Shown here one piece after another: positions 8,048-53,510 of a DNA stretch of 64,000 nt. How positions within the stretch are numbered: the first letter of the stretch is position 1; the number at the start of each line of letters is the position of its first letter. The stretch spans positions 32,001 to 96,000 of the IMG/VR virus record IMGVR_UViG_3300032053_000004; one strand, written 5' to 3'. The notes under the pieces were generated by a model, which saw nothing but the letters and a program-made list of their open reading frames with translations, did no database searches and was not told the origin of the DNA. Source of the stretch: a virus. Lineage: Duplodnaviria; Caudoviricetes. Made by a program: the position numbers and the translations under genes.

Positions 8048-8539
8048 GTGTATATTTATATGGTTGATAATCGCATGTTCAAAGTAAAAGTTATTCCAAC
8101 AAAAGAAGCTCTTCCTGGTTTGAGCAGCAGGGTTAGTTATTTTGATAGTCCATCATATAAAGAACTTTTTCAAGGTTTGAATGCTGAAATAATTCTTATT
8201 CAAGAATTCGGTTCTTACCAAGGTGATTATCTTTATATTTTTCGGGCAGAAGAAGGAAGGTATTATGGTTTTTTGAATTTCAGTTATGGTTCTTGTTCAG
8301 CATGTGACTCTCTTCTCGGTTGCACATCTTATGAGGATTTGGACACTCTCAGGGTTAGTTTAATAAACAACATAGAATGGCTTTCTCCTATGAAATTGAT
8401 AAATTATTTGAAGCAAAAAGATTTTCCGGCTACTATTGCCGGGTGCGAACTTCATCAATCGGAAAAGTTCATAGCAGATGCTATGAAGATCATTTTAACA
8501 GAAGAAGAAATTAAGACCTTGGATGTACTCGATTGCTAG
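8048..8539 (+). CDS. hypothetical protein (GSYQGD / YGSCSACD motifs) with C-terminal tag (IKTLDVLDC)
   Basis: ORF track; start uncertain. Confidence 0.65.
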   Translation: MYIYMVDNRMFKVKVIPTKEALPGLSSRVSYFDSPSYKELFQGLNAEIILIQEFGSYQGDYLYIFRAEEGRYYGFLNFSYGSCSACDSLLGCTSYEDLDTLRVSLINNIEWLSPMKLINYLKQKDFPATIAGCELHQSEKFIADAMKIILTEEEIKTLDVLDC

Positions 8540-20471: not shown

Positions 20472-21120
20472 AAAATATCGTCCGAATTTAGACGACGGGC
20501 CATCATCCTACTTTCAAAAAGCTGAAATATTCGCGAAAGAGTTTTATTCTGAAGAGTTGACTCGTATTTCTTCAACGAAATTTGAATCAGTTAGTCCTGA
20601 TTTCTTTTTTCGAGAATATATTTGGGTAGTTCATGCTACTGGCTTTTCTGCAAAAGCTGTCGGAAAATTTTTCGACAAACTTTTAAATGCTTATGGTTCA
20701 TATGCTATTTTAGCAAATGAAGATTTTTCTACTGCTTGGTCTCGAATTCAGCCTGTTTGTAATAATAAACTAAAGGCTTCTTCTATCCATAAGATGGCGA
20801 AGTTGATGACTTCTGAATTTTCCGATTGGGGAACTTTTAAATCAACCAGACTGATCTCTCCACAAACTCTTGCACAACTTCCACATGTAGGACCAGTTAC
20901 TTGTTTTCATTTAGCCAGGAATATTGGAATACTTGATTGTGTAAAGCCTGATCTTCATTTAGTTCGTATGGCTGAACACTGGGGTTTTAAAGATTGTGAT
21001 GAAATGTGTTTGAGTATTCAAAAAGAGTATGATTATCCTCTAGGAATCATAGACTTGATTTTATGGTATTCAGCCAGTACGTTTGGAACTTTAGAGATAA
21101 AGAAAGACGGTCAACGATGA
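20437..21120 (+). CDS. HhH-GPD superfamily DNA glycosylase-like protein
   Basis: LAQLPHVGPVTC HhH motif, VKPDLHLVR. Confidence 0.65.
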   Translation: MEIHKNLGSGTEKYRPNLDDGPSSYFQKAEIFAKEFYSEELTRISSTKFESVSPDFFFREYIWVVHATGFSAKAVGKFFDKLLNAYGSYAILANEDFSTAWSRIQPVCNNKLKASSIHKMAKLMTSEFSDWGTFKSTRLISPQTLAQLPHVGPVTCFHLARNIGILDCVKPDLHLVRMAEHWGFKDCDEMCLSIQKEYDYPLGIIDLILWYSASTFGTLEIKKDGQR

Positions 21121-21815
21121 AACATTATATCATTGCCTTTTCCGGGTATTCTGGTGTTGGTAAAGACGAATGCTCCGGTCAATTAGTTAGATCGTATAAT
21201 GCTATCCATACTGGTCTTGCTGATCCTGGGAAAAGACATATGGCTGACACTTATGGATGGACTGAGGAACAACTTTTCGGTCCTAGTCATTTTAGAAATG
21301 TTGGGGATATGAAATACCCTAAATTTGAAGAAATACTCCCTGGTGTTGAAGAAGGGGACCCGAAATATTATTTATCTCCTAGGGAAGCCCTTCAAAAATA
21401 TATGGGTCTCATGAATGATCTTTATCCGAATACCTGGATACAAAAAGGTGTTTATATCCATCATCAATTGGGTATAGGTGACTGTTTATATACTAGAATG
21501 GGTGGTCTTAAAATTTCATACTCAGTAATAAAAAGAAATGAGCCCGGAAAAATTTTTACGACTTTTTCAGATTTTAGGCACAAAAATGAAATATCCTATT
21601 TGAGAAAACATGGGCCTGATTCTCCGGCTAAAGTAGAGACTATCCCTATAATTGTTAGGGTCAAACGTCCATCTATACCAAATCCCCCATATGATCATCG
21701 ATCTGAAGTTGAACAATCAACTATTCCAGACTCTGAATTTGATTTTGTTATAAATAATGATTCGACTTTGGAAGAATTATATCGAAAGGTTGACGGAATA
21801 GTATCATCCCTATAA
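21117..21815 (+). CDS. deoxynucleoside monophosphate kinase
   Basis: FSGYSGVGKDE P-loop, REALQ, DFRHKNE, HRSE; ATGA coupling at 21117. Confidence 0.8.
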   Translation: MKHYIIAFSGYSGVGKDECSGQLVRSYNAIHTGLADPGKRHMADTYGWTEEQLFGPSHFRNVGDMKYPKFEEILPGVEEGDPKYYLSPREALQKYMGLMNDLYPNTWIQKGVYIHHQLGIGDCLYTRMGGLKISYSVIKRNEPGKIFTTFSDFRHKNEISYLRKHGPDSPAKVETIPIIVRVKRPSIPNPPYDHRSEVEQSTIPDSEFDFVINNDSTLEELYRKVDGIVSSL

Positions 21816-24115: not shown

Positions 24116-24466
24116 TTGTATTCTATGGCAGCAATACTTGCTATGAGATGTGATAAATGTCTTGTGAAGGAAACTTGTCCTCGGTTTGGATCAAGTCCTC
24201 TCATGATCTTAAATCATCCGCATTTATGTCAAGTAATAGGTGGATATGGGAGAATCCCAATAGATCAAAGCATTCTTTCTGAAGAGTCTAAACAATCATC
24301 CGCCCAGAACGGTCCTTGTTTGACTATTGCAGAAGTCCCGACTTATGATGAAGATTCAGGAAAAGTTCGTTTTGTAATAACTAAAATATTTCATAAACCA
24401 TTTTTAAATGAAAGGGAAAGATCAGATTATCCTGTTCATTTAATATATCCGAAAAGTCCTTCATAA
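24116..24466 (+). CDS. Cys-containing hypothetical protein
   Basis: CDKC...CP...C pattern. Confidence 0.5.
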   Translation: MYSMAAILAMRCDKCLVKETCPRFGSSPLMILNHPHLCQVIGGYGRIPIDQSILSEESKQSSAQNGPCLTIAEVPTYDEDSGKVRFVITKIFHKPFLNERERSDYPVHLIYPKSPS

Positions 24467-25672
24467 AATACTTTGTATTTTACACCATTTCATTTGTTCT
24501 GGAAATAGAACTTTTGATAATTCGTACATTTCGTATACTATTTTTCTATATGAACTATGTCCTTCTGGTTTAATTCGAGTTTCTATTATATGATAGAGTT
24601 CTTTCATATCCATTTGAAATATAGATCTATGTAAATAACCGAGTGGTATCATATACTGAAAATATGTTTGATTATTACAAATCTCTTCGTCTTCATAATT
24701 TGCAACAGACTCTAATGTTTTCTTATATTCAAATTCAAATTCAGACCCTTTAATTTCGTCTGGGACTACATAACCATAATCGATCGTTAGAAGTTCTGAA
24801 AATTTTTCACATCTCCTATGTCTTTGAAGATCTCTAAAAGCCCCATAATCCATCATGCAGTCAAAGCTTATTTTGATTGTTTTAAAAACATCCGGGACTT
24901 GGCCTTCTCTTTTTTCCATCATTTTCGAAAATGATTCCCAACTCATCCCGTACATATCTATCACTTGAGATTCGAATGATTTTGAAATTAACTCCGGGTT
25001 TATTAAGAATGATTTAAAGATATCAACATACCAGTTTGGTTCAGATATGTTAAACTTCGAGCTTAAATTTCCTAAATTTCTTGTCTGAAACAACATGTTA
25101 TTCGGTTTAATCTCAAAAAGATTTTCTAGTATTTTTTTCAATTCACCTCCTATATCGATGAACTCACTGTTTGAATGGCCGAGTAAATTTTCGGCCATTT
25201 CTTTAGCATCTTTTAAATTTAAAGAACATATGACATTAGTTCCTGTTCCGGCAGGTAGTAGATGTCGTACGCTGTCAAACGATTTTAGCTTAACTGCAGG
25301 ATCATCTATGTCTGTTTTCAGTTCCAGTGCGTATTTTTCTGAAATAGAATCATATAACTTTCCATATGAATCATATAATCTTAGTGCAAAATTCTTCATT
25401 GTATCAGGACAACCTGGAGGGACAATGAAATCGTATGAAAATTTTTCTTTTCTAGTGCTTTTTTCTAAATAACTCGGTCTTTGCCAGGATTCTATATACT
25501 TACTTGCTATTATAGATATTCCTTCAATATTCAGAACTATATTTACTAGTTCGTTTATATTATCCAACACCCATTCTTTATTTGACTCAGGTTTTACATA
25601 CCCCATCAATATCTCCATTTGGTTCTTAATGGAGATTATGTTGCCATCATTTGTCAGGCACGATACTTTCAT
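24461..25672 (-). CDS. thyX: tandem-domain ThyX-like flavin-dependent thymidylate synthase
   Basis: EKSTR and RHLLP in N-half; FRDLQRHR, YMIPLGY, R..PEGH.SYR in C-half. Confidence 0.72.
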   Translation of the reverse strand: MKVSCLTNDGNIISIKNQMEILMGYVKPESNKEWVLDNINELVNIVLNIEGISIIASKYIESWQRPSYLEKSTRKEKFSYDFIVPPGCPDTMKNFALRLYDSYGKLYDSISEKYALELKTDIDDPAVKLKSFDSVRHLLPAGTGTNVICSLNLKDAKEMAENLLGHSNSEFIDIGGELKKILENLFEIKPNNMLFQTRNLGNLSSKFNISEPNWYVDIFKSFLINPELISKSFESQVIDMYGMSWESFSKMMEKREGQVPDVFKTIKISFDCMMDYGAFRDLQRHRRCEKFSELLTIDYGYVVPDEIKGSEFEFEYKKTLESVANYEDEEICNNQTYFQYMIPLGYLHRSIFQMDMKELYHIIETRIKPEGHSSYRKIVYEMYELSKVLFPEQMKWCKIQSIL

Positions 25673-26277
25673 TTTTCTCCGGTAGTGTTAACTACATGGA
25701 CCAAGAGTTTCCTTCACTCCAAGATGAAGTTTCTAACATTAAGATTTTACACATGAAGAAACTTCATGTGTTTAAAAATGTCCCTGAATCTTTCCATCCT
25801 TGGGAGTCTAATTTATCCCCTTCAGCGTTATATAACTGTTCGTTGTCTTGTCGAAAACATATGAAAATTAAAACTCCTGAAGTAAAATGGATGAGTATTA
25901 AAAGATGGGTTACGTCAACTCCAAATGGAATAAATCTGCCGGATGGTGTATGTCTTTCTATAAAACGACGCGAATTTTTTATTGCTACTCCAGTCCCGAA
26001 AATTGAAAAACAGGAATTTATTCTTTTGATGTTCCCATACGGGAACGTTTGGAGTCAACGTTCTCTCGATGTTCCAATAGATGAAGATTGGATCTTTTCA
26101 AAGTCCAGTGATGGAAAATTGATTTTAGAATCTTTAATGTTAAAAGACGCTTCTAGACCAATACAAGGTTATTTTGAATCAGTATATAAATATATGACTG
26201 GAAATCCCGATCAAATCGGGATACACATGAAAAGGAAAAAAAGAGCGCAGACTCGGAAAAATCAAATAGGTTTGTGA
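25651..26277 (+). CDS. hypothetical protein
   Basis: ORF track; likely start MDQEFP. Confidence 0.55.
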   Translation: MSGTILSFFSGSVNYMDQEFPSLQDEVSNIKILHMKKLHVFKNVPESFHPWESNLSPSALYNCSLSCRKHMKIKTPEVKWMSIKRWVTSTPNGINLPDGVCLSIKRREFFIATPVPKIEKQEFILLMFPYGNVWSQRSLDVPIDEDWIFSKSSDGKLILESLMLKDASRPIQGYFESVYKYMTGNPDQIGIHMKRKKRAQTRKNQIGL

Positions 26278-27480
26278 TTATTCATCTAGAAGGTTTATCA
26301 CTTCTTTATGCAACGCTCCTGTTCCAATTAAGACAACCGGAACGTTGGCTATTTCTTCTACTTTTTCAATGAATTCTCGTGACTCTTTTGAGAGATCATT
26401 GAAAACTTTTCTCCCACCTTTAAGACCTGCATCTTTCCAATTCAAATATTGTACAAAATTTATGCAGATTTTTGTCGCTCCGTTAGTTCTAACGGCATCT
26501 TTCAATCCTATCCATGAAAACGTAGAAACACGTCTAACTCGTTTTGTGACTGTTGTTCGCTCGCGTTCTTCTAAAATTTTTGCTTCAGACTCTGGCATTC
26601 CAGATTGTTTTGCTATTTGACTCCAAGTCAGTTCTTCACAATCCGGGTAAAAGTCTCCTGAGTATCCTTTTTGAACACCGTCCTCATATACGTTCCCAAC
26701 GCGTATAGGGAAAGTTCGCAAATTTAAATAAACGTCCCCCACCATTGAAGGTGGAATCGCCATATAATCCATCGCGGCTTGAAGTGTGCAGTTACGTGAT
26801 GTACATGAAGGATAATGCGACCCGTGATCTATGGATAGAGCGTATCCTTGTGATCCTTCATGGAGCAATGTTGCTCCTTCTTCAATCATTGAATGAACGA
26901 TGTTCCTGAATTCCATCGGTTGAATAATTTTTATTTTTTCAATATCTTCTGGATTTTTTTCAAGAATTTTGTTGATATCTGGATCCGTAGCATTTAAAAA
27001 ATTCACATGATTCGGGAAAGAATCCATTAAACCAACGTCCGGTTTACGAAGAATTTTGTCAGAAATGGCTGTTCCTGACCCCTGCATAGTAGAAGCCACG
27101 TGCTTCGTGGAGTCTTTTCCTTCTCTTTCTCGAGCAGCGTGTTCATTGGTTACAATGCTTGCTCTAGAATGAACATATATGTTTGGTCTTCCTGTTTCAT
27201 CCCATTCTTTTATTAATTGTTTTGGAAACAACCCTGATCCTGGAGATAAGAAACACTCCATACCGAGTCCCATCACTTTTTTAAGAATTGCTGATGTTGG
27301 TATAGCTTTCGATATGAACTTCGTCCCATTTTCGAAAACTGCTGAGTGCCCTGCATTTGGAAAATTAGCTGAAGAAACTTTTGTTACGTTATAATGGTCA
27401 GCTAACCAAGTGGATATTTTCCCTTTTCCAGAACTTCCCCAAGCTTGATCTAAAACTACGTTAAACTTTCCTGTCTTCAT
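26278..27480 (-). CDS. purZ: PurZ-like N6-succino-2-amino-2'-deoxyadenylate synthase (adenylosuccinate synthetase family)
   Basis: DQAWGSSGKG (Ser where PurA has Asp13), PNAGH, EGSQGY.LS..HG..YP.CTSR, RTFPIRVGN, SG..YPD, TTVTK..RR..TFS, INFVQY in place of PurA TKLD. Confidence 0.8.
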   Translation of the reverse strand: MKTGKFNVVLDQAWGSSGKGKISTWLADHYNVTKVSSANFPNAGHSAVFENGTKFISKAIPTSAILKKVMGLGMECFLSPGSGLFPKQLIKEWDETGRPNIYVHSRASIVTNEHAAREREGKDSTKHVASTMQGSGTAISDKILRKPDVGLMDSFPNHVNFLNATDPDINKILEKNPEDIEKIKIIQPMEFRNIVHSMIEEGATLLHEGSQGYALSIDHGSHYPSCTSRNCTLQAAMDYMAIPPSMVGDVYLNLRTFPIRVGNVYEDGVQKGYSGDFYPDCEELTWSQIAKQSGMPESEAKILEERERTTVTKRVRRVSTFSWIGLKDAVRTNGATKICINFVQYLNWKDAGLKGGRKVFNDLSKESREFIEKVEEIANVPVVLIGTGALHKEVINLLDE

Positions 27481-27494
27481 GCTTAACAGTACAC

Positions 27495-28232
27495 TTACGT
27501 TCTTCTTCTAAGAGATTCTTGTTCGATTTTGGAAACTCTGGTTTGCCCGTGATTTTTTGAGATTCTCGCTAAATCAATTTTTTCCGAATATTTGACTATA
27601 CTATATTTACTGTCTTTATTCCCCAATGCTATTAATTTTGCTCCGGATATCTCTTTAGCGGTAAACTCTCTGCCTATTAGTTGAAGTTTTCTTCTTTTGT
27701 TCAATCTATTAGCCCATTTTATCTTTAAGTATCTTCTTATTGCTTTTTCAGACATGAATGATACTTTAATTGTCATATCCGAAGGAATTGTCCTATACAT
27801 TCTTAAGGACATTCGACACCCGAAATCACATGCCAGAGCAAAAGCTTCTTGATAAGAAACGGCTCTTATCAAGACATGTGATAATTTATACTTTTCAGGA
27901 TAAATAGCTCTCCAAATTTTTGTATCTTCAGTGCTTTCAGAAATTAATTTACTTAATGTGTCTTCTCCATAACTTGGGAAAGCTAAACTCATAGAGGCGT
28001 CATAAAGTTGGTCGAATCTTGTTTTCCCGATTTTTAATGCTTTTTGCGGGACGTTTTTTATCAATTCAATTGGTACAGCGTTATTTATTATTAAATCAAC
28101 GATCATATTTTTGAAGTATTCTGTATCTTTTTCTAGTCCGATGTTCTTTTTTAAATATTGTATTACTTCAGATTCTATTTCATGTCTTTTATGTTTTTTC
28201 ATTGTAATGTGTTTCCATGTCAGCTGTAACAA
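27495..28232 (-). CDS. hypothetical basic protein
   Basis: ORF track. Confidence 0.6.
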   Translation of the reverse strand: MLQLTWKHITMKKHKRHEIESEVIQYLKKNIGLEKDTEYFKNMIVDLIINNAVPIELIKNVPQKALKIGKTRFDQLYDASMSLAFPSYGEDTLSKLISESTEDTKIWRAIYPEKYKLSHVLIRAVSYQEAFALACDFGCRMSLRMYRTIPSDMTIKVSFMSEKAIRRYLKIKWANRLNKRRKLQLIGREFTAKEISGAKLIALGNKDSKYSIVKYSEKIDLARISKNHGQTRVSKIEQESLRRRT

Positions 28233-31740: not shown

Positions 31741-32087
31741 TGGATGGAACGGTAGCTGGCAACAAAGTTAACGGGACACTTGTTAGACTAGCTACTCTTG
31801 ATCGTGCATTAGAACTGTATCCTAGTTTAATTCTTTTGATTGCTAGGATTCAGCTTCAAGCACCGCGTTTACTTCCTATAACAACAACTCTTTCAGCCAG
31901 TGGAAGAGAGATTTTCATAATCAAAGATCCTTTAAAGATAGAAATAAATTATTGTTTACTGAGTGAGGACTGGGAAAAATGCAAAGCAATAGCTTTAAGC
32001 CTTTTACCATTACCTCTATTTCCATCTGAATCTGATCAGTCTCTTCTTGCTAGAATCCGATCTGAAATCAAAGTAGTTTTCGCCTAG
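31740..32087 (+). CDS. hypothetical protein
   Basis: coupled to upstream stop. Confidence 0.55.
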   Translation: MDGTVAGNKVNGTLVRLATLDRALELYPSLILLIARIQLQAPRLLPITTTLSASGREIFIIKDPLKIEINYCLLSEDWEKCKAIALSLLPLPLFPSESDQSLLARIRSEIKVVFA

Positions 32088-32422: not shown

Positions 32423-33208
32423 ATGATGCAAATTCACGGGAATTCCCAACAACAAGAGAAAATCAAATCTCTTTTAATTTCCCCAACTCCTCCGAATCCA
32501 ATAATGATTTGTGGAGCTCAGGGAATAGGTAAATTTTCTTATATAAAACAACTCGTATCAGAAATCAATTCAGATACAGATATTCTCTTTCCCGGTTTAG
32601 ATGTTGACAGCGCGAGAGAATCCGTTAAATTTTCATGTTTAGCTCCCGTATTTAATGATTATAAATTCATAGTCATAAATGACGGTGATTTTTTGAGTCT
32701 TCAGGCTCAGGATGCTTATTTAAAATCCTGTGAAGAATCCCCTGATTGGTCTATTTTCATTTTTATTGCTAGTGATTCGTCTCATATCTCTTCAGCTTTG
32801 TTGAGCCGAATTAGAGAAACTATAAGATGGTCTATTTTATCAAATGAAGAAATGCGAAACTTCATATCTAAAGACGTAAATGAAAACGTCATGGATATTT
32901 GTAGAGGCAGACCTGGGATATATGAAACGATAATAAATAATGAATCTCTACTCTCATTTTCATCAGATGTTTCTGAATTTTTGTCTGATATCCCTAGGTC
33001 TTCAATTATTCCTAGTGCTATTATTGAAGCAAAGAAATCTGATAAAAATTATCGTTCTATAATATCTAGAATATGTTTCCATACTGCATTGAAACTAAAT
33101 CATAATGTAGACCGCGTTTGTTCTGTATTAGATTTTGCATCCAATTTATCTAAATATCCCTCCTTAGATATTGAGTCTTATTGGATTAAAGCAACTTTAA
33201 ATATCTGA
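32423..33208 (+). CDS. holB: DNA polymerase III delta-prime (HolB)-like clamp loader subunit
   Basis: GAQGIGK, AQDAYLKSCEE, ALLSR (SRC-like). Confidence 0.75.
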   Translation: MMQIHGNSQQQEKIKSLLISPTPPNPIMICGAQGIGKFSYIKQLVSEINSDTDILFPGLDVDSARESVKFSCLAPVFNDYKFIVINDGDFLSLQAQDAYLKSCEESPDWSIFIFIASDSSHISSALLSRIRETIRWSILSNEEMRNFISKDVNENVMDICRGRPGIYETIINNESLLSFSSDVSEFLSDIPRSSIIPSAIIEAKKSDKNYRSIISRICFHTALKLNHNVDRVCSVLDFASNLSKYPSLDIESYWIKATLNI

Positions 33209-33231: not shown

Positions 33232-34074
33232 GTGACTGTTTTAGTTATTGAGGGTGATGATGATTTCTTAGTTGAGCGTGCGGCTCGAGAAGAAGCCATA
33301 TCTTATCTTTCAGAAAACGAAAGTTTGGAGTTTTTTCTTCCTGGTGATTCTGATTCTTTTCAAGAGTATTTAAATGTTCCTTCTTTTAAAGAAGAAAGAC
33401 GTTCTGTTGTTATTCACGGAGCAACATTAATCCCTGATATTAAAAATGACGATCTATTGATTTTTACAAAAATTGGACAGAAACTAGACGCAACTAAACA
33501 TAAAATTGTAACAATTCGTTCTCCAAAAAATGAAAACGAAATTCTTCAATGGGTTTTAAGAGAAGGGGAAACGCTCAATATAGATCTAACGCGAGTCGCG
33601 CATGCTCTTTTTGTGAGCTGCGGATCTTGTCTCCGCAAAATCGTCATGGAAATTGAGAAAATTTCAATGATAACTCAAAAAGGAGGCGTTGTTACTCAAG
33701 AAGAAGCGAAATCTGTTTTATGTTTTTCAGCTGATCTTAAACCCATTCAAATGCTTGAAGCCATATTAGAAGGAAATTCTGCTAAAACATTAGCTTATTT
33801 TGACAAATTTGAAGAAAATAATGATATTGGATGGATTTTATCATACATGCATCGTCATGTATCTCAAGCTCTTCAATTTAAAAAGTTCCCAAATTCTAAA
33901 GTCCCATTTTTTGCGAAAGAGCTTTCATTTAAAATGAAATCTTTATCTCGTAGTGTAGACACATTTTGTGAATTAGACGGTCTTTTTCGTTCTGGAAAAC
34001 CGTCAGCTCGTTTAGGTTTGGGGTTTGAACTCGTGAGAATGGCGGAGGATATTAAAAATGTTAAGAGTGGTTGA
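33232..34074 (+). CDS. holA: DNA polymerase III delta (HolA)-like clamp loader subunit
   Basis: VIEGDDDFL, EIEKI, follows holB-like gene. Confidence 0.7.
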   Translation: MTVLVIEGDDDFLVERAAREEAISYLSENESLEFFLPGDSDSFQEYLNVPSFKEERRSVVIHGATLIPDIKNDDLLIFTKIGQKLDATKHKIVTIRSPKNENEILQWVLREGETLNIDLTRVAHALFVSCGSCLRKIVMEIEKISMITQKGGVVTQEEAKSVLCFSADLKPIQMLEAILEGNSAKTLAYFDKFEENNDIGWILSYMHRHVSQALQFKKFPNSKVPFFAKELSFKMKSLSRSVDTFCELDGLFRSGKPSARLGLGFELVRMAEDIKNVKSG

Positions 34075-36853
34075 TAGTTCTCAAATTGATCAAATTTCTT
34101 CAAACATTATGCTTGAAGCCGGTCACTGGCCTCGCGTTTTTACAGCAGAAGGCATACATCCATTTGAACAAATTGAATGGAAAATAGTAGACGCTCGTAT
34201 TGAAGGGAAGGGCGGAAACGTCGTTTTTGAGCAAAAAGGAGTAGAAGTTCCTATTTGGTGGGGTCAGTCCGCCATAAATATTGTTGCTGATAAATATATG
34301 AGGGTCATTAATGGAGTTAGAGAAAATTCTGTTAAGCAAATTTTTTCCCGCGTAGCATCGACGATCCGTAAATGGGCAACCGAACAAGAATATTTTAATG
34401 TTGAGAAAGATGCTCAAATTTTTGAAGAAGAGCTGATTTTTGCTTTACTCCATCAATATGGAGCATTTAATTCTCCTGTCTGGTTTAATTTGGGTGTTCC
34501 AGATAGGAAACAAGCAGCTTCTGCGTGTTTCATATCGAGTGTTGAAGATACGCTTGATAGTATCATGAATTTTCAATGTTCTGAATTAAAAATTTTTGCT
34601 TTTGGCTCCGGATCAGGTGCTAATTTATCTAAGATTCGTTCGTCTTATGAAAAACTTTCTTCAGGTTCTTACACATCCGGGCCTCTTTCTTGGATGAAAG
34701 GTCTTGATGATTATGCCGGGGCTATGAAATCTGGCGGATCTACTAGAAATGCCGCTAAAATGGTTGTTCTTGATATTGATCATCCTGATATCCTTGAGAC
34801 TAAGGATGGACGTCCTGGTTTCATTAAGGCTAAGTCAGCAGCCGAGCAAATTGCCCATGATTTGATTCAAAAAGCTGGGTATACCGGATCTTTCGACGAT
34901 CCGAATTCAGCCTATAAGATAGTTCCACTGCAAAATGCGAATAATTCGATCAGCATAACTAACTCCTTCATGCAAGCAGTTATAGATGATGGTCTTTGGC
35001 AAACCAAAGAACGTTTAACTGGCAAACCAGTTCACACATATAAAGCACGTGATGTTTGGAAAGAAATTTCCATCGCAGCTTGGAAATGTGCTGATCCTGG
35101 TGTTCAATTTAATGATACTATGAATGAATGGCATACTACTCCAAAATCAGGAAAAATACGTGCCTCTAATCCATGCTCAGAGTATTTGAATATCGACAAT
35201 ACGGCTTGTAATCTTTGCGCTATTAATTTAACTAAATTCTTCGAAGGAAAGAAATTTAATCACGAAAGATTTGAACAGTCTGTTCGTTTGTTCGTTACTT
35301 CACAAAACGCTATCATAGCTAAGGCTGAGTATCCGACTGATGAAATAACTAAGAATAGTATAACGAACCGCCCCATAGGTTTAAATTACGGGGATCTTGG
35401 TGCGTTACTTATGAAATTCGGATACGGTTATGATTCTGATGAAGGTCGTGCTATTGCTGCTCGTATGGCAAGCCTTATGACCGGTCATGCTTATTTGACT
35501 TCTGCTCGTCTTGCGGCTCGAGTCGGAGCTTTTGAAGAATTTAAAGATAATCGAGACGATATGATGCGAATTATGCGAAAGCATAAAGAAGCGGATTCAG
35601 TCATTCTTTCTCGGTGGAATTTAGAGAATGATCCGATTTCGGATGATGTAGTTTCTGCTAGTTCCAAACTTTGGGATGACGTTATAGATTTTGGCTTGAG
35701 ATATGGATATAGTGTTTCTCAGGCCACTCTCCAAGCTCCTCTTGGGACTATCTCTTTCTTGATGGAAATGAATACGACCGGAATCGAACCTGCATTTTCT
35801 CTTGTTTCATATAAGACTATGGTCGGCGGCGGCTTCATGAAGCTTGTTAATGGGGCTGTCCGCGATGCTCTTGTAAATCTCGGATATTCACAAGAGTCTA
35901 CTGAAGAGATATGTCAGTATATTCATGACAATGATTGTATTGAGGGAGCTCCCGGGTTTAAAGAAGAAGATTTACCAGTTTTTGACTGCGCCATGCCTTC
36001 TGGTAGATCTAAGAGATCTCTTTCTCCTATGGCCCATATTAAGATGATGGCAGCGATTCAGCCGCTCATTACGTGCGCCCAAAGTAAAACTGTTAATTTA
36101 CCTAATTCCGTAACTCCTGAGGATATTGGCAATGTTTATATGGAAGCTTGGAAGCTTGGTTTAAAATGTGTTGCTCTTTATCGAGATGGTTGTAAACTTT
36201 CGCAACCTCTTGCGACCAAAGAACGCTCTGATGAGCAGCATGATATTAAGATGGTTGATGAACCGAGGAAAGACATTGAGCTATCGTTCGGTGCTAAACG
36301 TCGTCCTATGCCGAATGACGCAGAAGGTACCAGACATGTATTTCACATTGATGGGTATAAAGGTTATATAATAGTAAACGAATATGCTGATAAAACTCCG
36401 GGAGAAGTCTTCCTAAGACTTGGAAAACCAGGATCGACAGTTGCCGGTTTGATTGATGGTTTTACTAAGCTTCTCAGTATTTCTCTTCAATTTGGTGTTC
36501 CTCTTCCGAAATTGATCCATAGTTTTGTCGACACGAAATTTGAACCGGCTGGATTTACTCAAAATCCGAATATTCGATTTGCTAAGAGTTTTTATGATTA
36601 TTTATTCAAGTATCTTGATCTTAAGTATTACGATGGGGAAAATACTGGTTTAAATTTGAAGAAACTTGTTGCTGAAGAAAGTGAGTCTATAACACCAAAT
36701 TCTGTTGATAGTTTATACCCGACTCCTATTCCTGTTGCTCCGATTAAAAAGAATCTTGATTCTCCCCCGTGTACACGGTGCGGATCCATTACGATTCGTA
36801 ATGGATCTTGCCATCTTTGTACAAATTGCGGCATAACAACAGGCTGTAGTTAG
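34058..36853 (+). CDS. nrdJ: class II (adenosylcobalamin-dependent) ribonucleotide reductase
   Basis: FNSPVWFN, ASACFI, SNPCSEY, APLGTIS, GIEP, SKTVN, C-terminal zinc ribbon CTRCG...CHLCTNCG. Confidence 0.95.
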   Translation: MLRVVDSSQIDQISSNIMLEAGHWPRVFTAEGIHPFEQIEWKIVDARIEGKGGNVVFEQKGVEVPIWWGQSAINIVADKYMRVINGVRENSVKQIFSRVASTIRKWATEQEYFNVEKDAQIFEEELIFALLHQYGAFNSPVWFNLGVPDRKQAASACFISSVEDTLDSIMNFQCSELKIFAFGSGSGANLSKIRSSYEKLSSGSYTSGPLSWMKGLDDYAGAMKSGGSTRNAAKMVVLDIDHPDILETKDGRPGFIKAKSAAEQIAHDLIQKAGYTGSFDDPNSAYKIVPLQNANNSISITNSFMQAVIDDGLWQTKERLTGKPVHTYKARDVWKEISIAAWKCADPGVQFNDTMNEWHTTPKSGKIRASNPCSEYLNIDNTACNLCAINLTKFFEGKKFNHERFEQSVRLFVTSQNAIIAKAEYPTDEITKNSITNRPIGLNYGDLGALLMKFGYGYDSDEGRAIAARMASLMTGHAYLTSARLAARVGAFEEFKDNRDDMMRIMRKHKEADSVILSRWNLENDPISDDVVSASSKLWDDVIDFGLRYGYSVSQATLQAPLGTISFLMEMNTTGIEPAFSLVSYKTMVGGGFMKLVNGAVRDALVNLGYSQESTEEICQYIHDNDCIEGAPGFKEEDLPVFDCAMPSGRSKRSLSPMAHIKMMAAIQPLITCAQSKTVNLPNSVTPEDIGNVYMEAWKLGLKCVALYRDGCKLSQPLATKERSDEQHDIKMVDEPRKDIELSFGAKRRPMPNDAEGTRHVFHIDGYKGYIIVNEYADKTPGEVFLRLGKPGSTVAGLIDGFTKLLSISLQFGVPLPKLIHSFVDTKFEPAGFTQNPNIRFAKSFYDYLFKYLDLKYYDGENTGLNLKKLVAEESESITPNSVDSLYPTPIPVAPIKKNLDSPPCTRCGSITIRNGSCHLCTNCGITTGCS

Positions 36854-36904
36854 GTTTATATTTCCATAATTAATATGATTAGGTTTTTTTTGTTATTAGT
36901 TAAT

Positions 36905-37324
36905 ATGAACCCTTCTCAGGTCGTCCAGTCCCTTCGTCGTATAGCTGCTGCCATCCAAGCTTCAAAGAATCCTGACCGAAGGCTTGTGGCTCGGGATTTA
37001 AAGAAGATTATTTCTATTCTTTTGAACAAACCGAAATCCGAAACATTTTATGTTGATTGGGAAGGGAGAGGTTATACATCAGATTTAATGAAATCTGACA
37101 TTCAAATAATGAAAAAAACAATAGGAGAAGGACCAATTTATGCTGGAAGTATTGATGATTTTACAGGTGAGTATTTTAGTTCAACAGGCGGACCTATTGA
37201 AAATTTGATAATTTTAAGAGGTGGACTTAAGAATACTGACAGTAGTCCTTTCATGAGAGACAATGTTCTTTGGAGAAAATTTTCTAATTGGGATGAACTA
37301 ATAAATGAATTTCAATTGTTTTAA
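36905..37324 (+). CDS. KPSQV/SKNPDR-leader protein
   Basis: MNPSQVVQSLRRIAAAIQASKNPDRRLVARDLKKIISILLNKP; start at 36905 by comparison with paralogs. Confidence 0.75.
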   Translation: MNPSQVVQSLRRIAAAIQASKNPDRRLVARDLKKIISILLNKPKSETFYVDWEGRGYTSDLMKSDIQIMKKTIGEGPIYAGSIDDFTGEYFSSTGGPIENLIILRGGLKNTDSSPFMRDNVLWRKFSNWDELINEFQLF

Positions 37325-48958: not shown

Positions 48959-50296
48959 ATGCTTGATATTAAATATCGTCCGAAATCTTTTAAAGAAGTT
49001 GTTGGCAATCTAGGTATCGTCAAACTTCTTCTAACTAGGAGTAAAAACAAAACTCTTGGTTCTCGTTCTATAATGTTTGGCGGTCCAAAGGGTTGTGGGA
49101 AAACAACTCTCGCTCGAATAGTTAGTCGAGCTATATATTGTGAAAATTTAAATGAAGGAGAACCCTGTAATTCTTGTATATATTGCCAATCTATAATTGA
49201 TGGGAGTTCTTCCAGCTTTGAAGAATTTGATGCTGCCTCCCAAGGAACTGTGGATAAGATTCGATCTATTGTTCAAGATCTTGATTATATTTCTCTTGAT
49301 GGGAAACCAAAAATTTGTATTTTGGACGAAGCTCAAAGACTTTCTGCTCAAGCCCAAGATGCTCTTCTTCGTCCTATAGAAGATAGGAGATTAGTTATTA
49401 TTTTATGCACAACTGAACCGAATAAAATTCGTCCTGCTGTTCGTTCAAGACTTGAAGAACATAGTGTATCCTCTCCTAATACAGATGATCTAGTTTCATT
49501 TTTGGTTAGAGTTTGCGATATAGAGTCCATAAAATATGACTTACCGGCTCTCAAGCTTTTACCGAATTTTTTAGAGAATTGTCCAAGAGTTTGTTTAAAT
49601 TCAATAGATACTATTTCTTCATATGGCCCAATATCTGTAGATGCAGTTCGTTCCTTTCTTAGGACTGAAAATTATGAATCTTTATCTCGATCTCTCACTT
49701 TTATGAAATTGGATCCCGCGAAGTCTTTTTCTTCTCTAGATAAACTGGAAGCCTCTGAAGGAGTGACTTGGATCCGTGATACTATTGTTTCCATCGTTGT
49801 AAATGAAATTCGAGTCCGAGTCGGGGCTAAATCGAAAATTAATACTAAAACTGATTTAGTTGATTTTTCATCCCATCAACTTTCAACTCTTGCTATGAAA
49901 CTTTCAGATTTAGATAAATTCAACATTTATGATTTGAGTTCAATTCTATTCTCTATACTAAATAAAGTTGAACTTGCTTCCGCTCCAGTTTTCGTTCCCT
50001 CCATTACTCCTACCTCTTCCTCTCCTATTCCAGTTTCTGTTCCCATATCATATAGAATACCGAAATCTGTTTCTAATGGAAAATCTGATTTTAAACAAAA
50101 AAAGTCTGTTGAAGTAGATGGGGTCATATATTCTTCGGAAGAAACATTGACTAGTTTGGATCATAAAATCGAGAAAGAATCTAATATTCATATTGAGCAA
50201 GAAAAATTAAGTTCTGTAGAGTATGATGGTAGGTTTCTACCTATTCCGGAGAAAGAATTTGCTCGTGGCCTTATCAAAAGAATTAAAGGTTCGTAA
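48959..50296 (+). CDS. dnaX: DNA polymerase III gamma/tau (DnaX) clamp loader ATPase
   Basis: KYRP..F..VVG, GPKGCGKTT, C..C..C zinc motif, DAAS, LDEAQ.L, SR. Confidence 0.9.
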   Translation: MLDIKYRPKSFKEVVGNLGIVKLLLTRSKNKTLGSRSIMFGGPKGCGKTTLARIVSRAIYCENLNEGEPCNSCIYCQSIIDGSSSSFEEFDAASQGTVDKIRSIVQDLDYISLDGKPKICILDEAQRLSAQAQDALLRPIEDRRLVIILCTTEPNKIRPAVRSRLEEHSVSSPNTDDLVSFLVRVCDIESIKYDLPALKLLPNFLENCPRVCLNSIDTISSYGPISVDAVRSFLRTENYESLSRSLTFMKLDPAKSFSSLDKLEASEGVTWIRDTIVSIVVNEIRVRVGAKSKINTKTDLVDFSSHQLSTLAMKLSDLDKFNIYDLSSILFSILNKVELASAPVFVPSITPTSSSPIPVSVPISYRIPKSVSNGKSDFKQKKSVEVDGVIYSSEETLTSLDHKIEKESNIHIEQEKLSSVEYDGRFLPIPEKEFARGLIKRIKGS

Positions 50297-52217: not shown

Positions 52218-52985
52218 ATGTCCTCACACATTTTGATACAGAACCCTAGTGATATGTCCTCAAGATTTAGTACTCAGGACGGGCTCGGGCAGGAAGAATC
52301 TAACATTGAAGACGCTATGGGGGCTCTTATTGATCGGAGCCTAACCGTAAAAATTGAGGAGATTGATTATAAAAAATTAGAATTTGATGCAGTATCAAAA
52401 TACTTAGATAGAATTCCCGATAGAGAAGCCGATTTGATCCGGTTATATCATCGAGATAAGATGAAGCAAGAACAAATAGCAAGACTTTTTAGTATTACTC
52501 AAGCCGCCGTCTCTTATCGTTTACATCGTGGTATTAAGAGGATTCAATTTTTAAGGACTATTCCGGAACTTGATCAAGAAGAATTTGATGTTGATTTAGG
52601 CCATGTTTTTAATAATCAAGATCGAGAAATTCTTTGGCGGATGTATGAAACGACTTGTCAAAGTGAAATTGCTAAACAGATGGGTTTAACCCAAGGTCGG
52701 GTTCGTCATCGGTTTTTTAGGTCTTTGGCAAAGATAAAAGATCTTATTGCTGGCGAAGTTCGAGAAAAACAAACATATCTCGATGCCTTGAAAAAACATA
52801 ATAAGACGTCTGAGTACATTGAATCTGCTCAAACTGAACTTGATAATTGCATTGTAAATAGTAAATATGCTAGATATTATAGGGTATTCTTTGCCATTAG
52901 TGATAAACATTTCAACCTCTTACATGAGGTGAAATTTCCACAATTTGCTGATCGCGGCGACGCCCAGGTTTTGCCGATCGATTAA
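52218..52985 (+). CDS. protein with two tandem sigma70 region-4-like HTH domains
   Basis: QEQIARLFSITQAAVSYRL and QSEIAKQMGLTQGRVRHRF; GGAG RBS. Confidence 0.75.
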   Translation: MSSHILIQNPSDMSSRFSTQDGLGQEESNIEDAMGALIDRSLTVKIEEIDYKKLEFDAVSKYLDRIPDREADLIRLYHRDKMKQEQIARLFSITQAAVSYRLHRGIKRIQFLRTIPELDQEEFDVDLGHVFNNQDREILWRMYETTCQSEIAKQMGLTQGRVRHRFFRSLAKIKDLIAGEVREKQTYLDALKKHNKTSEYIESAQTELDNCIVNSKYARYYRVFFAISDKHFNLLHEVKFPQFADRGDAQVLPID

Positions 52986-53009
52986 ATTTTTTTTTGATTT
53001 TAAATTAAT

Positions 53010-53510
53010 ATGAAGCCTTCACAAGTCGCTATGGCTCTACGCCATATCGCTTCAGCTATTCAGGCTTCAAAGAATCCTGATCGAAAGCTTGTGGCCCGGG
53101 ATTTAAAGAAAATAATCTCGGTTTTATTAAACAAACCTAGAGAATTAGTTCACAAAAAATTTGTTGAAGCGTGGAAAAAGATCACGGAACCGTTCCGTGA
53201 TCTGGGTGTTAGCGACGAGCCTCTTTACACTGATCCTAAACAAATACCATCCTCAAAAAGAATAAAATATATTGACTTCGGGGATGGATTGGTATTTGTT
53301 TTAAAAGCCCAACCTGGAGTTTATGATAATAAAGATGAGTATAGTATTATATTAGATTTTATGAATCCTATCACTAAATCAGTTGAGCGAGTTTATACAG
53401 GTCCAAAGTGTACCTTGGGAATAACTAAAGATGAATTTGCTGAAATGGTAGACGCAGCATCTGATATTATGAATAATAATCAAAAAAATAAAGCATTTGA
53501 TATAAATTGA
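53010..53510 (+). CDS. KPSQV/SKNPDR-leader protein
   Basis: MKPSQVAMALRHIASAIQASKNPDRKLVARDLKKIISVLLNKP. Confidence 0.75.
   Translation: MKPSQVAMALRHIASAIQASKNPDRKLVARDLKKIISVLLNKPRELVHKKFVEAWKKITEPFRDLGVSDEPLYTDPKQIPSSKRIKYIDFGDGLVFVLKAQPGVYDNKDEYSIILDFMNPITKSVERVYTGPKCTLGITKDEFAEMVDAASDIMNNNQKNKAFDIN

Follow-up and report, generated by a model that had tools for sequence, protein, structure and literature searches.

A PurZ-type synthetase gene in a lineage of huge phages and the possible presence of 2-aminoadenine in their DNA

A putative PurZ-type synthetase gene in a huge-phage genome

The DNA analyzed here (hereafter, the window) is a stretch of 64,000 nucleotides that corresponds to positions 32001–96000 of the IMG/VR virus record IMGVR_UViG_3300032053_000004 (designated G000). 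We focused on one open reading frame (ORF) on its minus strand, the product of which (P0001) was used as the query and is predicted to be a PurZ-type synthetase. PurZ and PurZ0 are both reported to make the precursor of 2-aminoadenine (Z) (PMC12884076).

26278..27480, minus strand: putative PurZ-type synthetase gene (400 amino acids, P0001; PF00709, E = 4.9e-35)

The ORF is intact, with an ATG start and no internal stop codons, and PF00709 is the Pfam family of adenylosuccinate synthetase (PurA). Every motif on which the original prediction of a PurZ-type enzyme had relied was found in its translation, namely WGSSGKGK (residues 14–21) and FPNAGHS (40–46) in the N-terminal part, RTFPIRV (255–261) and SGDFYPD (274–280) in the middle, and TTVTKRVRR (309–317) and INFVQY (340–345) in the C-terminal part. 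A word-indexed search yielded 1025 homologues at E < 1e-5, the best 119 of which showed 62–70% identity and were in many cases located on contigs of 240–445 kb; an exhaustive search gave 239 clusters at E < 1e-30. Because more than 1000 homologues exist and the gene order recurs in eight of nine related loci, P0001 is not a chance ORF. Some PurZ-like homologues are much longer (P0121–P0123, P0128, P0129, P0139, P0142, P0145, P0151, P0154 and P0218; 734–1197 amino acids) and match P0001 in two to four separate stretches, so that some gene copies may be interrupted by inteins or by large insertions of another kind.

The record is linear, 202,143 bp long and without end repeats, and CheckV estimated it to be 47% complete; we take the genome of this uncultured sediment phage to be about 400 kb. 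Its DNA was detected in sediment metagenomes, with at least half of the sampled words present in 22 of the 24 runs listed. For comparison, we fetched ten IMG/VR loci of relatives, which included three complete genomes with terminal repeats (G001, 426,960 bp; G002, 436,316 bp; G003, 376,674 bp). The phage is therefore very large, as originally predicted. The purZ-type gene is a core gene of this phage lineage of ~380–440 kb, and the clade formed by its products is as yet unnamed and sister to canonical PurZ, as described below.

Active-site residues, family scores and predicted fold

To distinguish PurZ from PurA, we adopted the positions reported in a 2025 preprint, which compared adenylosuccinate-synthetase domains between restriction-resistant (dZ) and ordinary contigs (bioRxiv 10.1101/2025.10.22.683976). 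These include Phe295 and Tyr298, which contact the adenine of ATP, and Pro233, Tyr244 and Trp252 of VpPurZ. We aligned P0001 with the PurZ proteins of phiVC8, S-2L, PMBT28 and Bm1, one PurZ0, Escherichia coli PurA and 120 close homologues, and found seven PurZ-discriminating states in P0001: Ser16, Thr309 (T262 in VpPurZ), Phe342 (F295), Tyr345 (Y298), Pro258 (P233), Tyr278 (Y244) and Trp286 (W252). Serine at the position of the catalytic Asp13 of PurA, which is found in 100% of phage PurZ (PMC12884076), is shared by every one of the 120 close homologues and of the 253 homologues with a readable P-loop. Thr309, Phe342, Tyr345, Tyr278 and Trp286 are each present in 120/120 close homologues and Pro258 in 117/120; when Trp14 is included, the eight columns of P0001 are kept in 114–120 of the 120. 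Trp14 is aromatic, but PurA likewise has Trp there. In E. coli PurA, the columns of Ser16, Trp14, Thr309, Phe342, Tyr345, Pro258, Tyr278 and Trp286 are occupied by Asp, Trp, Gly, Lys, Val, Ser, Pro and Gly, respectively. Thus, whereas canonical PurA combines Asp13 with a GTP site, P0001 combines Ser with an ATP-type NF..Y pocket (NFVQY) where PurA carries the GTP motif TKLD. The Arg in TVTKRVRR, previously regarded as a PurA-like trait, turned out not to be one: Ser-type homologues most often read TTVTKR[VIL]RR, and the same position is occupied by Lys in phiVC8 PurZ, by Arg in the PurZ of Burkholderia phage Bm1 and by Leu only in the S-2L/PMBT28 type.

Among sequences in the Protein Data Bank, the best matches to P0001 were the PurZ proteins of phiVC8 (E = 6.7e-31) and S-2L (4.7e-30), followed by the archaeal PurA of Pyrococcus horikoshii (4e-27) and E. 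coli PurA (about 1e-16). The NCBIfam hidden Markov models (HMMs) gave the same ranking, with 189 bits for PurZ (NF038379), 175 for archaeal-type PurA (NF003295) and 133 for purA (TIGR00184), all of which are below the curated cut-offs. In the same run, NF038379 scored 397 bits for phiVC8, 350 for S-2L and 162–203 for other huge-phage homologues. An AlphaFold2 model of P0001 (94 sequences; predicted local distance difference test score [pLDDT] 97, predicted template modelling [TM] score 0.94) was most similar in Foldseek to 6FM1 (E = 5.8e-29) and 7ODX (6.2e-29), that is, to PurZ of Vibrio phage phiVC8 (PurZ/DgsS; 6FM1/6FKO/6TNH) and cyanophage S-2L, with TM-scores by target of 0.85–0.86. The short PurA of P. 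horikoshii (5K7X/2D7U) showed TM-scores by target of 0.89–0.90. Because archaeal PurA is almost as near as PurZ, the fold alone is indecisive, and the residues decide.

P0001 shares with the PurZ proteins of phiVC8 and S-2L not only Ser at the Asp13 position, the Thr of the TTVT loop and the NF..Y pocket, but also the conserved blocks NAGH, STxQG, YPxCTSR, PIRV, ELTW and TTVTK..RR. However, it is only 26–32% identical to them and about 40–55 residues longer; the extra parts are a helical insert at ~150–190, loops that follow RVGN and ELTW, and a C-terminal region that is longer and PurA-like. Residues, HMM ranking and fold, together with the phylogeny described below, support the prediction that P0001 is of the PurZ type rather than the PurA type.

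Phylogenetic position of the Ser-type proteins

We constructed two trees rooted on bacterial PurA (8–16 outgroup sequences across the trees), a quick one with 99 rows and a careful maximum-likelihood tree with 66 rows (IQ-TREE, LG+C20), and the two were concordant on the clades listed here. The Ser-type proteins formed a single clade (100/100) apart from bacterial PurA. Its earliest branches were PurZ0 of Gordonia phage Archimedes and three paralogues from bacterial plasmids, and the remainder formed a clade with support of 99/96. Within the latter, a 16-row group (99/95) contained the validated PurZ proteins of phiVC8, Bm1, S-2L and PMBT28, and a 24-row group (97/90) was its sister (84/84). 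The 24-row group comprised Flavobacterium phage MaF61, two copies from myxobacterial chromosomes and a huge-phage clade of eight rows (100/98) that includes P0001. P0001 is accordingly nearer to canonical PurZ than PurZ0 is, since the 99/96 clade joins the two and leaves PurZ0 out. A tree constrained to unite PurZ with PurZ0 to the exclusion of the query group was worse by 53 log-likelihood units (approximately unbiased test, P = 0.041), a result that lends weak support because the tested group was named after the tree had been seen. Grouping with PurZ and apart from bacterial PurA, which the original prediction had left to be verified by a phylogeny with PurA, PurZ and PurZ0, was thus obtained, with PurZ0 further out, in trees whose PurA sequences were bacterial.

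PurZ0 (7VF6; Gordonia phage Archimedes and Arthrobacter phage type) belongs to the same superclade and has the same fold as P0001 (E = 1.7e-24), but its nucleoside triphosphate site reads SMADQ where P0001 has NFVQY, and its partner genes are DutZ and DmtZ (PMC12884076). MaF61 (PQ858689) is a cultured Flavobacterium phage of 168 kb, whose Ser-type gene (L020:7983-9326; FGSSGKGK, NFVNY) lies between scaffold and terminase genes. The MaF61 protein is 27% identical to P0001, has a long branch and carries a large insert after the loop equivalent to RVGN (PIRIHD); a YfbR-like match in this phage was below threshold. Given the placement of the huge-phage clade as sister to PurZ yet with only 189 bits against the NF038379 cut-off of 300, we refer to it as an unclassified PurZ branch. 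We are fairly confident that P0001 is genuinely a PurZ-type synthetase, strongly conserved and belonging to this sister branch.

One alternative is that the gene encodes an ordinary adenylosuccinate synthetase, which would act as an auxiliary metabolic gene boosting AMP, in some relatives alongside a phage PurB. Public sources do annotate the homologues as adenylosuccinate synthase, and huge phages are reported to carry purine-synthesis genes (PMC7162821). Moreover, a Lyase_1 gene of G001 (82045-83466; L032:2045-3466) scored 474 bits with TIGR00928 against a cut-off of 326, the score of a true PurB, and a second relative, G005, has a Pfam Lyase_1 match at 126380-127183; together with the synthetase, such genes would form a branch from IMP to AMP. 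Against this stand the replacement of the catalytic Asp by Ser in every homologue and of TKLD by NFVQY, the score of 133 bits against the TIGR00184 cut-off of 396, and the 100/100 split from bacterial PurA. We therefore regard an ordinary PurA as very improbable.

Ser-type paralogues in bacteria

Ser-type proteins were also found outside phages, with 82 records in a tblastn search of plasmids. In plasmids of Burkholderia thailandensis (L113:3428-5771) and Rhizobium (L114:3455-5748), an AAA_18 kinase-like domain precedes the Ser-type domain in one fused protein, the gene for which is followed by a gene for a DUF7002 protein, with SIR2, AbiE and transposase genes nearby. In the tree, the fusion is found at the base of the Ser-type clade, close to PurZ0. 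Judging from this gene arrangement, the fusion and the DUF7002 gene may constitute a two-gene defence cassette. The myxobacterial copies, in Chondromyces apiculatus DSM 436 (L052:2836-5212) and in the chromosome of Sorangium sp. So ce131 (L053:3001-4113), encode proteins 42% identical to P0001 and have a host-like G+C content of 65–68%; the Chondromyces gene is followed by genes for a dUTPase-domain protein and an AAA_25 protein.

The roles of these related bacterial proteins are not assigned, which leaves room for the view that the Ser-type enzyme of the huge phages acts on another substrate (GMP, dIMP/IMP or another 6-oxopurine nucleotide) and that its product is not the Z precursor but, perhaps, a ribonucleotide or some other modified base. 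The separate clade with scores below the PurZ cut-off, the inserts at ~150–190 and 263–273 and a C-terminus more PurA-like than that of canonical PurZ would be in line with such a change. The clade is nevertheless sister to validated PurZ, with PurZ0, itself reported to make the Z precursor, further out, and no TGT/DpdA-type gene of the 7-deazapurine route was found in seven related genomes. A different substrate thus appears unlikely.

Gene neighbourhood of purZ

The order of genes around purZ is kept in the relatives: an upstream gene for a 245-amino-acid protein with no assigned function, purZ, a convergent gene for a 193-amino-acid protein, likewise with no assigned function, and thyX. On the other side of the block lie two large genes without assigned function, clamp-loader-like genes and a class II ribonucleotide reductase gene. 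The features in the window are as follows.

21063..21815, plus strand: possible deoxynucleotide monophosphate kinase (weak match to PF21448 DNMK, E = 5.6e-5, below the gathering score; found in 4 relatives)
24461..25672, minus strand: ThyX-type flavin-dependent thymidylate synthase, long form (PF02511 Thy1, E = 3.5e-20; syntenic in 7 relatives)
25696..26277, plus strand: conserved convergent gene with no assigned function (193 amino acids; ends 1 base before the purZ stop codon)
27495..28232, minus strand: conserved gene with no assigned function, 14-nt gap upstream of purZ (245 amino acids with a TTG start, 235 by other callers)
32423..33208, plus strand: clamp-loader subunit, delta-prime/HolB-like (PF13177, E = 1.7e-7; PHROG 5846)
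34058..36853, plus strand: class II (B12-dependent) ribonucleotide reductase (PF02867, E = 2.6e-115; PF08471)
48959..50296, plus strand: DnaX-like AAA+ clamp-loader subunit (PF13177, E = 8.2e-25; PF00004)

Homologues of the gene at 27495-28232 (44–53% identity) adjoin purZ in eight of nine related loci, and the gene is probably co-transcribed with purZ; searches of Pfam, PHROG and Atlas gave no usable match for its product. The convergent gene at 25696-26277 would encode 208 amino acids if translated from an upstream TTG at 25651, although the 193-amino-acid call was made in independent assemblies; copies 60–64% identical lie between purZ and thyX in four related loci, and its product likewise had no match in Pfam, PHROG or Atlas. 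The ribonucleotide reductase is 57–69% identical in six relatives and 25% in a seventh. The presence of thyX indicates that ordinary dTMP is made. Together, ThyX, the ribonucleotide reductase and the kinase-like gene fit a module for deoxynucleoside triphosphate (dNTP) supply, and the putative kinase at 21063-21815, on the basis of its weak domain match, is a candidate for the step from dZMP to dZDP.

Partner genes and DNA polymerase

The original prediction noted no DatZ, MazZ or DpoZ in the window, and this was borne out for the whole 202-kb record: nothing similar to these proteins of phiVC8 and S-2L was found, nor any HD, YfbR-like, MazG or MazG-like gene, family A or B polymerase, or Pol III alpha subunit. 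Candidates for the partner genes that it had proposed to seek in the rest of the genome were found elsewhere, in complete relatives. G001, G002, G003 and G005 each have an HD gene (210–227 amino acids) adjacent to a gene for an all-alpha MazG-like protein (153–170 amino acids), and the pair lies 8–10 kb from a gene for a family A polymerase (PolA) of ~950 amino acids; the HD gene of G003 is overlooked by the Pfam HD model alone and was found with a protein query. Since the contig is incomplete, and complete relatives as well as a co-occurring contig carry HD and MazG-like genes, we attribute the absence of partners from G000 to its incompleteness.

The HD proteins matched PF12917 (YfbR-like; E = 1e-18 to 1e-20), a family that also contains the DatZ proteins of S-2L and phiVC8, to which they showed E values of 1e-5 to 2e-7 in a small database. 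The residues R19, H34, H66, D67, G74, K81 and K116 of S-2L DatZ, which comprise the metal ligands and the holders of the three phosphates (PMC8065100), are kept in the HD proteins of G001, G002 and G005 and in P0309, an HD protein described below. The lineage proteins thus share with S-2L DatZ (6ZPA) both the family and the metal ligands, R19, K81 and K116, but are about 40 residues longer and have Tyr/Phe20 and Ser22 instead of Trp20 and Ile22. In a search for homologues, 46 of the 47 with a readable motif (70 searched) had Tyr/Phe20 and Ser22, and the remaining one had Thr22.

A family A polymerase was present in all six relatives searched, five of which are at least 90% complete, whereas neither Pol III alpha nor a family B polymerase was found in G000 or in the complete relatives G001–G003. 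The Pol III-style replisome originally proposed for this phage is therefore reduced to its clamp-loader genes, which are combined in the relatives with a family A polymerase. A nucleoside diphosphate kinase (NDK) gene was found in G003 (152866-153252). Lyase_1/PurB and NDK genes were absent from the 202-kb record, and no guanylate kinase was found in the five genomes searched.

The arrangement of these genes differs from that of known systems. In phages of the phiVC8/S-2L type, purZ, mazZ and datZ form a cassette, whereas in the huge-phage lineage purZ stands beside thyX and ribonucleotide reductase genes, ~185–230 kb from the HD/MazG-like pair in the complete relatives.

Location of the partner block in the present phage

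We compared the proteins of G000 and G001 over the whole genomes. The region at 52–202 kb of G000 is collinear with 246–411 kb of G001, and the RecA block at 45–50.6 kb of G000 corresponds to 52–59 kb of G001 in inverted orientation. By contrast, only one of the 52 ORFs in the first 52 kb of G001, where the PolA, MazG-like and HD genes are located, was matched in G000. Because every relative has a polymerase and G000 has none, this block must lie in the unrecovered half of G000.

A search with the HD protein of G001 revealed P0309 (213 amino acids, 45% identical), which occurs on about as many contigs as P0001. Among the ten samples listed for each protein, the two have four in common (ERZ27247916, ERZ27247875, ERZ27247977 and JGI 3300037137); in ERZ27247916, P0001 lies on a contig of 103.6 kb and P0309, which has a MazG-like neighbour of 168 amino acids, on one of 168,046 bp. 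The P0309 locus (L109) is collinear with 38.9–51 kb of G001, from PolA to HD, at 26–57% protein identity, which is comparable to the 23–87% between G000 and G001, and it has no orthologues in G000.

A repeat of ~140 nt provides a further connection. It encodes a 40-amino-acid N-terminal leader (MKPSQV...IQASKNPD...ARDLKKI) that is fused to unrelated proteins, and was found at the following positions.

7272-7408, 36879-37030 and 52980-53126 of the window: leader repeat copies
146.8–150.1 and 161.7 kb of G000: further copies
7946-8086 and 10363-10515 of L109: leader repeat copies

At least eight copies are present in G000 and two in L109, and G001 has no nucleotide-level match. The identity between L109 and G000 copies (72–87%) is in the range seen among the G000 copies themselves (64–88%). 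These observations suggest that the L109 contig is probably the missing part of the same phage population.

Possible incorporation of 2-aminoadenine into phage DNA

P0001 is predicted to catalyze the reaction of deoxyguanosine monophosphate (dGMP), aspartate and ATP to dSMP (N6-succino-2-amino-2'-deoxyadenylate). In this mechanism, the PurZ-type enzyme would phosphorylate the O6 of dGMP with ATP, and L-aspartate would displace the phosphate to give dSMP, which adenylosuccinate lyase (that of the host or, in two relatives, a phage PurB) would convert to dZMP and kinases to dZTP. The YfbR/DatZ-type HD hydrolase and the MazG-like pyrophosphatase, encoded near the family A polymerase, would clear dATP (or dAMP) and provide dGMP. 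As a result, virion DNA would contain 2-aminoadenine in place of adenine and be less exposed to restriction by the host.

We consider it probable, with moderate confidence, that the lineage including this phage puts Z into its DNA to a substantial degree. PurZ-like, HD, MazG-like and PolA genes occur together in every complete lineage genome examined. Moreover, Tyr20 with Ser or Thr at position 22 is prevalent among YfbR-like proteins of restriction-resistant, dZ-enriched contigs (Yang et al.), and the polymerase of S-2L, although non-selective, suffices for full replacement after removal of dATP (PMC8065100). The substrate choice of P0001, the activities of the HD and MazG-like proteins and the Z content of the DNA are what we infer from these gene contents and residues.

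Several observations weigh against this interpretation. As for the enzyme, its NF038379 score leaves P0001 outside the curated PurZ family, and archaeal PurA is nearly as close to it as PurZ by sequence, HMM score and fold; the outgroup consisted of bacterial PurA only, so that the placement in the trees applies to PurA of that kind rather than to the short Asp-type PurA of archaea. In addition, Ser13 alone is no proof of Z-DNA, because Ser-type paralogues are located in bacterial defence islands and chromosomes, where they are unlikely to act for a Z genome. As for the partners, the HD proteins have Tyr/Phe and Ser in place of Trp20, by which DatZ excludes the 2'-OH, and of Ile22, by which it excludes the 2-amino group and thus spares dZTP (PMC8065100). 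The model of the HD protein (pLDDT 92) ranks the dNMP nucleotidase YfbR, OxsA and DatZ about equally; given this tie and Ser22, specific hydrolysis of dATP is a candidate activity, and either dATP or dAMP may be the substrate. The MazG-like protein weakly resembles MazZ (E = 0.003 to 0.1), gives weak matches to PF12643/PF03819 in Pfam and none to DUF550, and the PolA of G001 shows family-level similarity to phiVC8 DpoZ (21% identity, E = 5e-10). Furthermore, no YfbR-like HD gene was found in the PurZ-like phages G004 (251 kb, 91% complete) and G010 (100 kb, complete), and the HD contig is tied to G000 by co-occurrence and a common repeat, not by an assembly join.

Many of these observations could also be explained if PurZ chemistry operated without full replacement of A by Z, through partial incorporation of dZTP or a reshaping of the purine dNTP pool that might, for example, drain dGMP or counter a nucleotide-based defence of the host. 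The loss of Ile22, the equally good fits of YfbR and DatZ, the lack of specific likeness of the polymerase to DpoZ, the two HD-less phages and the paralogues in defence islands all favour this possibility. The co-occurrence of the four genes, the dZ-enriched contigs and the precedent of S-2L speak against it, and we judge it a less probable alternative to substantial Z incorporation.

The fullest form of the Z-genome interpretation is that phages of ~400 kb have fully Z-substituted genomes, produced by an unlinked PurZ of the sister clade, a Tyr20/Ser22 variant of DatZ, and a family A polymerase with clamp loaders. We hold this tentatively, at somewhat less than an even chance. Under full substitution, the DatZ variant must exclude dZTP otherwise than by the steric gate of Ile22.

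We also compared observed and expected frequencies of 6-mer palindromes. Those composed of G and C only (GGCGCC, CCGCGG and GCCGGC) were depleted in G000 (median observed/expected ratio 0.61, n = 8), and those containing A or T were not (1.0, n = 56); in G001, the contrast was weak (0.89 versus 0.95). The contrast is suggestive of protection at A/T sites, but it is too noisy to count as evidence.

Novelty and further observations

In the literature we searched, no paper linked PurZ to jumbo, huge or megaphages. The Z-DNA phages characterized in the literature examined are siphoviruses and podoviruses, and the examples compared have genomes of ~40–70 kb; the huge-phage genome is 6–10 times larger than those of the phiVC8/S-2L type. 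In PMC13128860, more than 2000 viruses are cited as predicted by PurZ homology (Tong et al. 2023, Nat Microbiol, and two 2021 papers), and the present contigs may already be counted among them.

If the lineage does replace adenine, its Z genomes would be 6–10 times larger than any described in the literature searched, and phage genomes of ~400 kb, with their more cell-like sets of replication and repair genes, would be able to accommodate the complete replacement of a purine. A third PurZ branch would be defined, which would be useful for annotation because the NCBI model misses it and public sources call its members plain adenylosuccinate synthase. A DatZ variant that spares dZTP in a different manner would be of interest for the engineering of Z-DNA synthesis. 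Z-DNA resists many restriction enzymes and has an altered melting behaviour. Both properties can bias the preparation of libraries and the signals of long reads, which matters for the metagenomics of these abundant sediment phages.

Finally, positions 1–2000 of the window have a G+C content of 53%, compared with 31–46% in the remaining window, and contain overlapping long ORFs on both strands at 178–1377.

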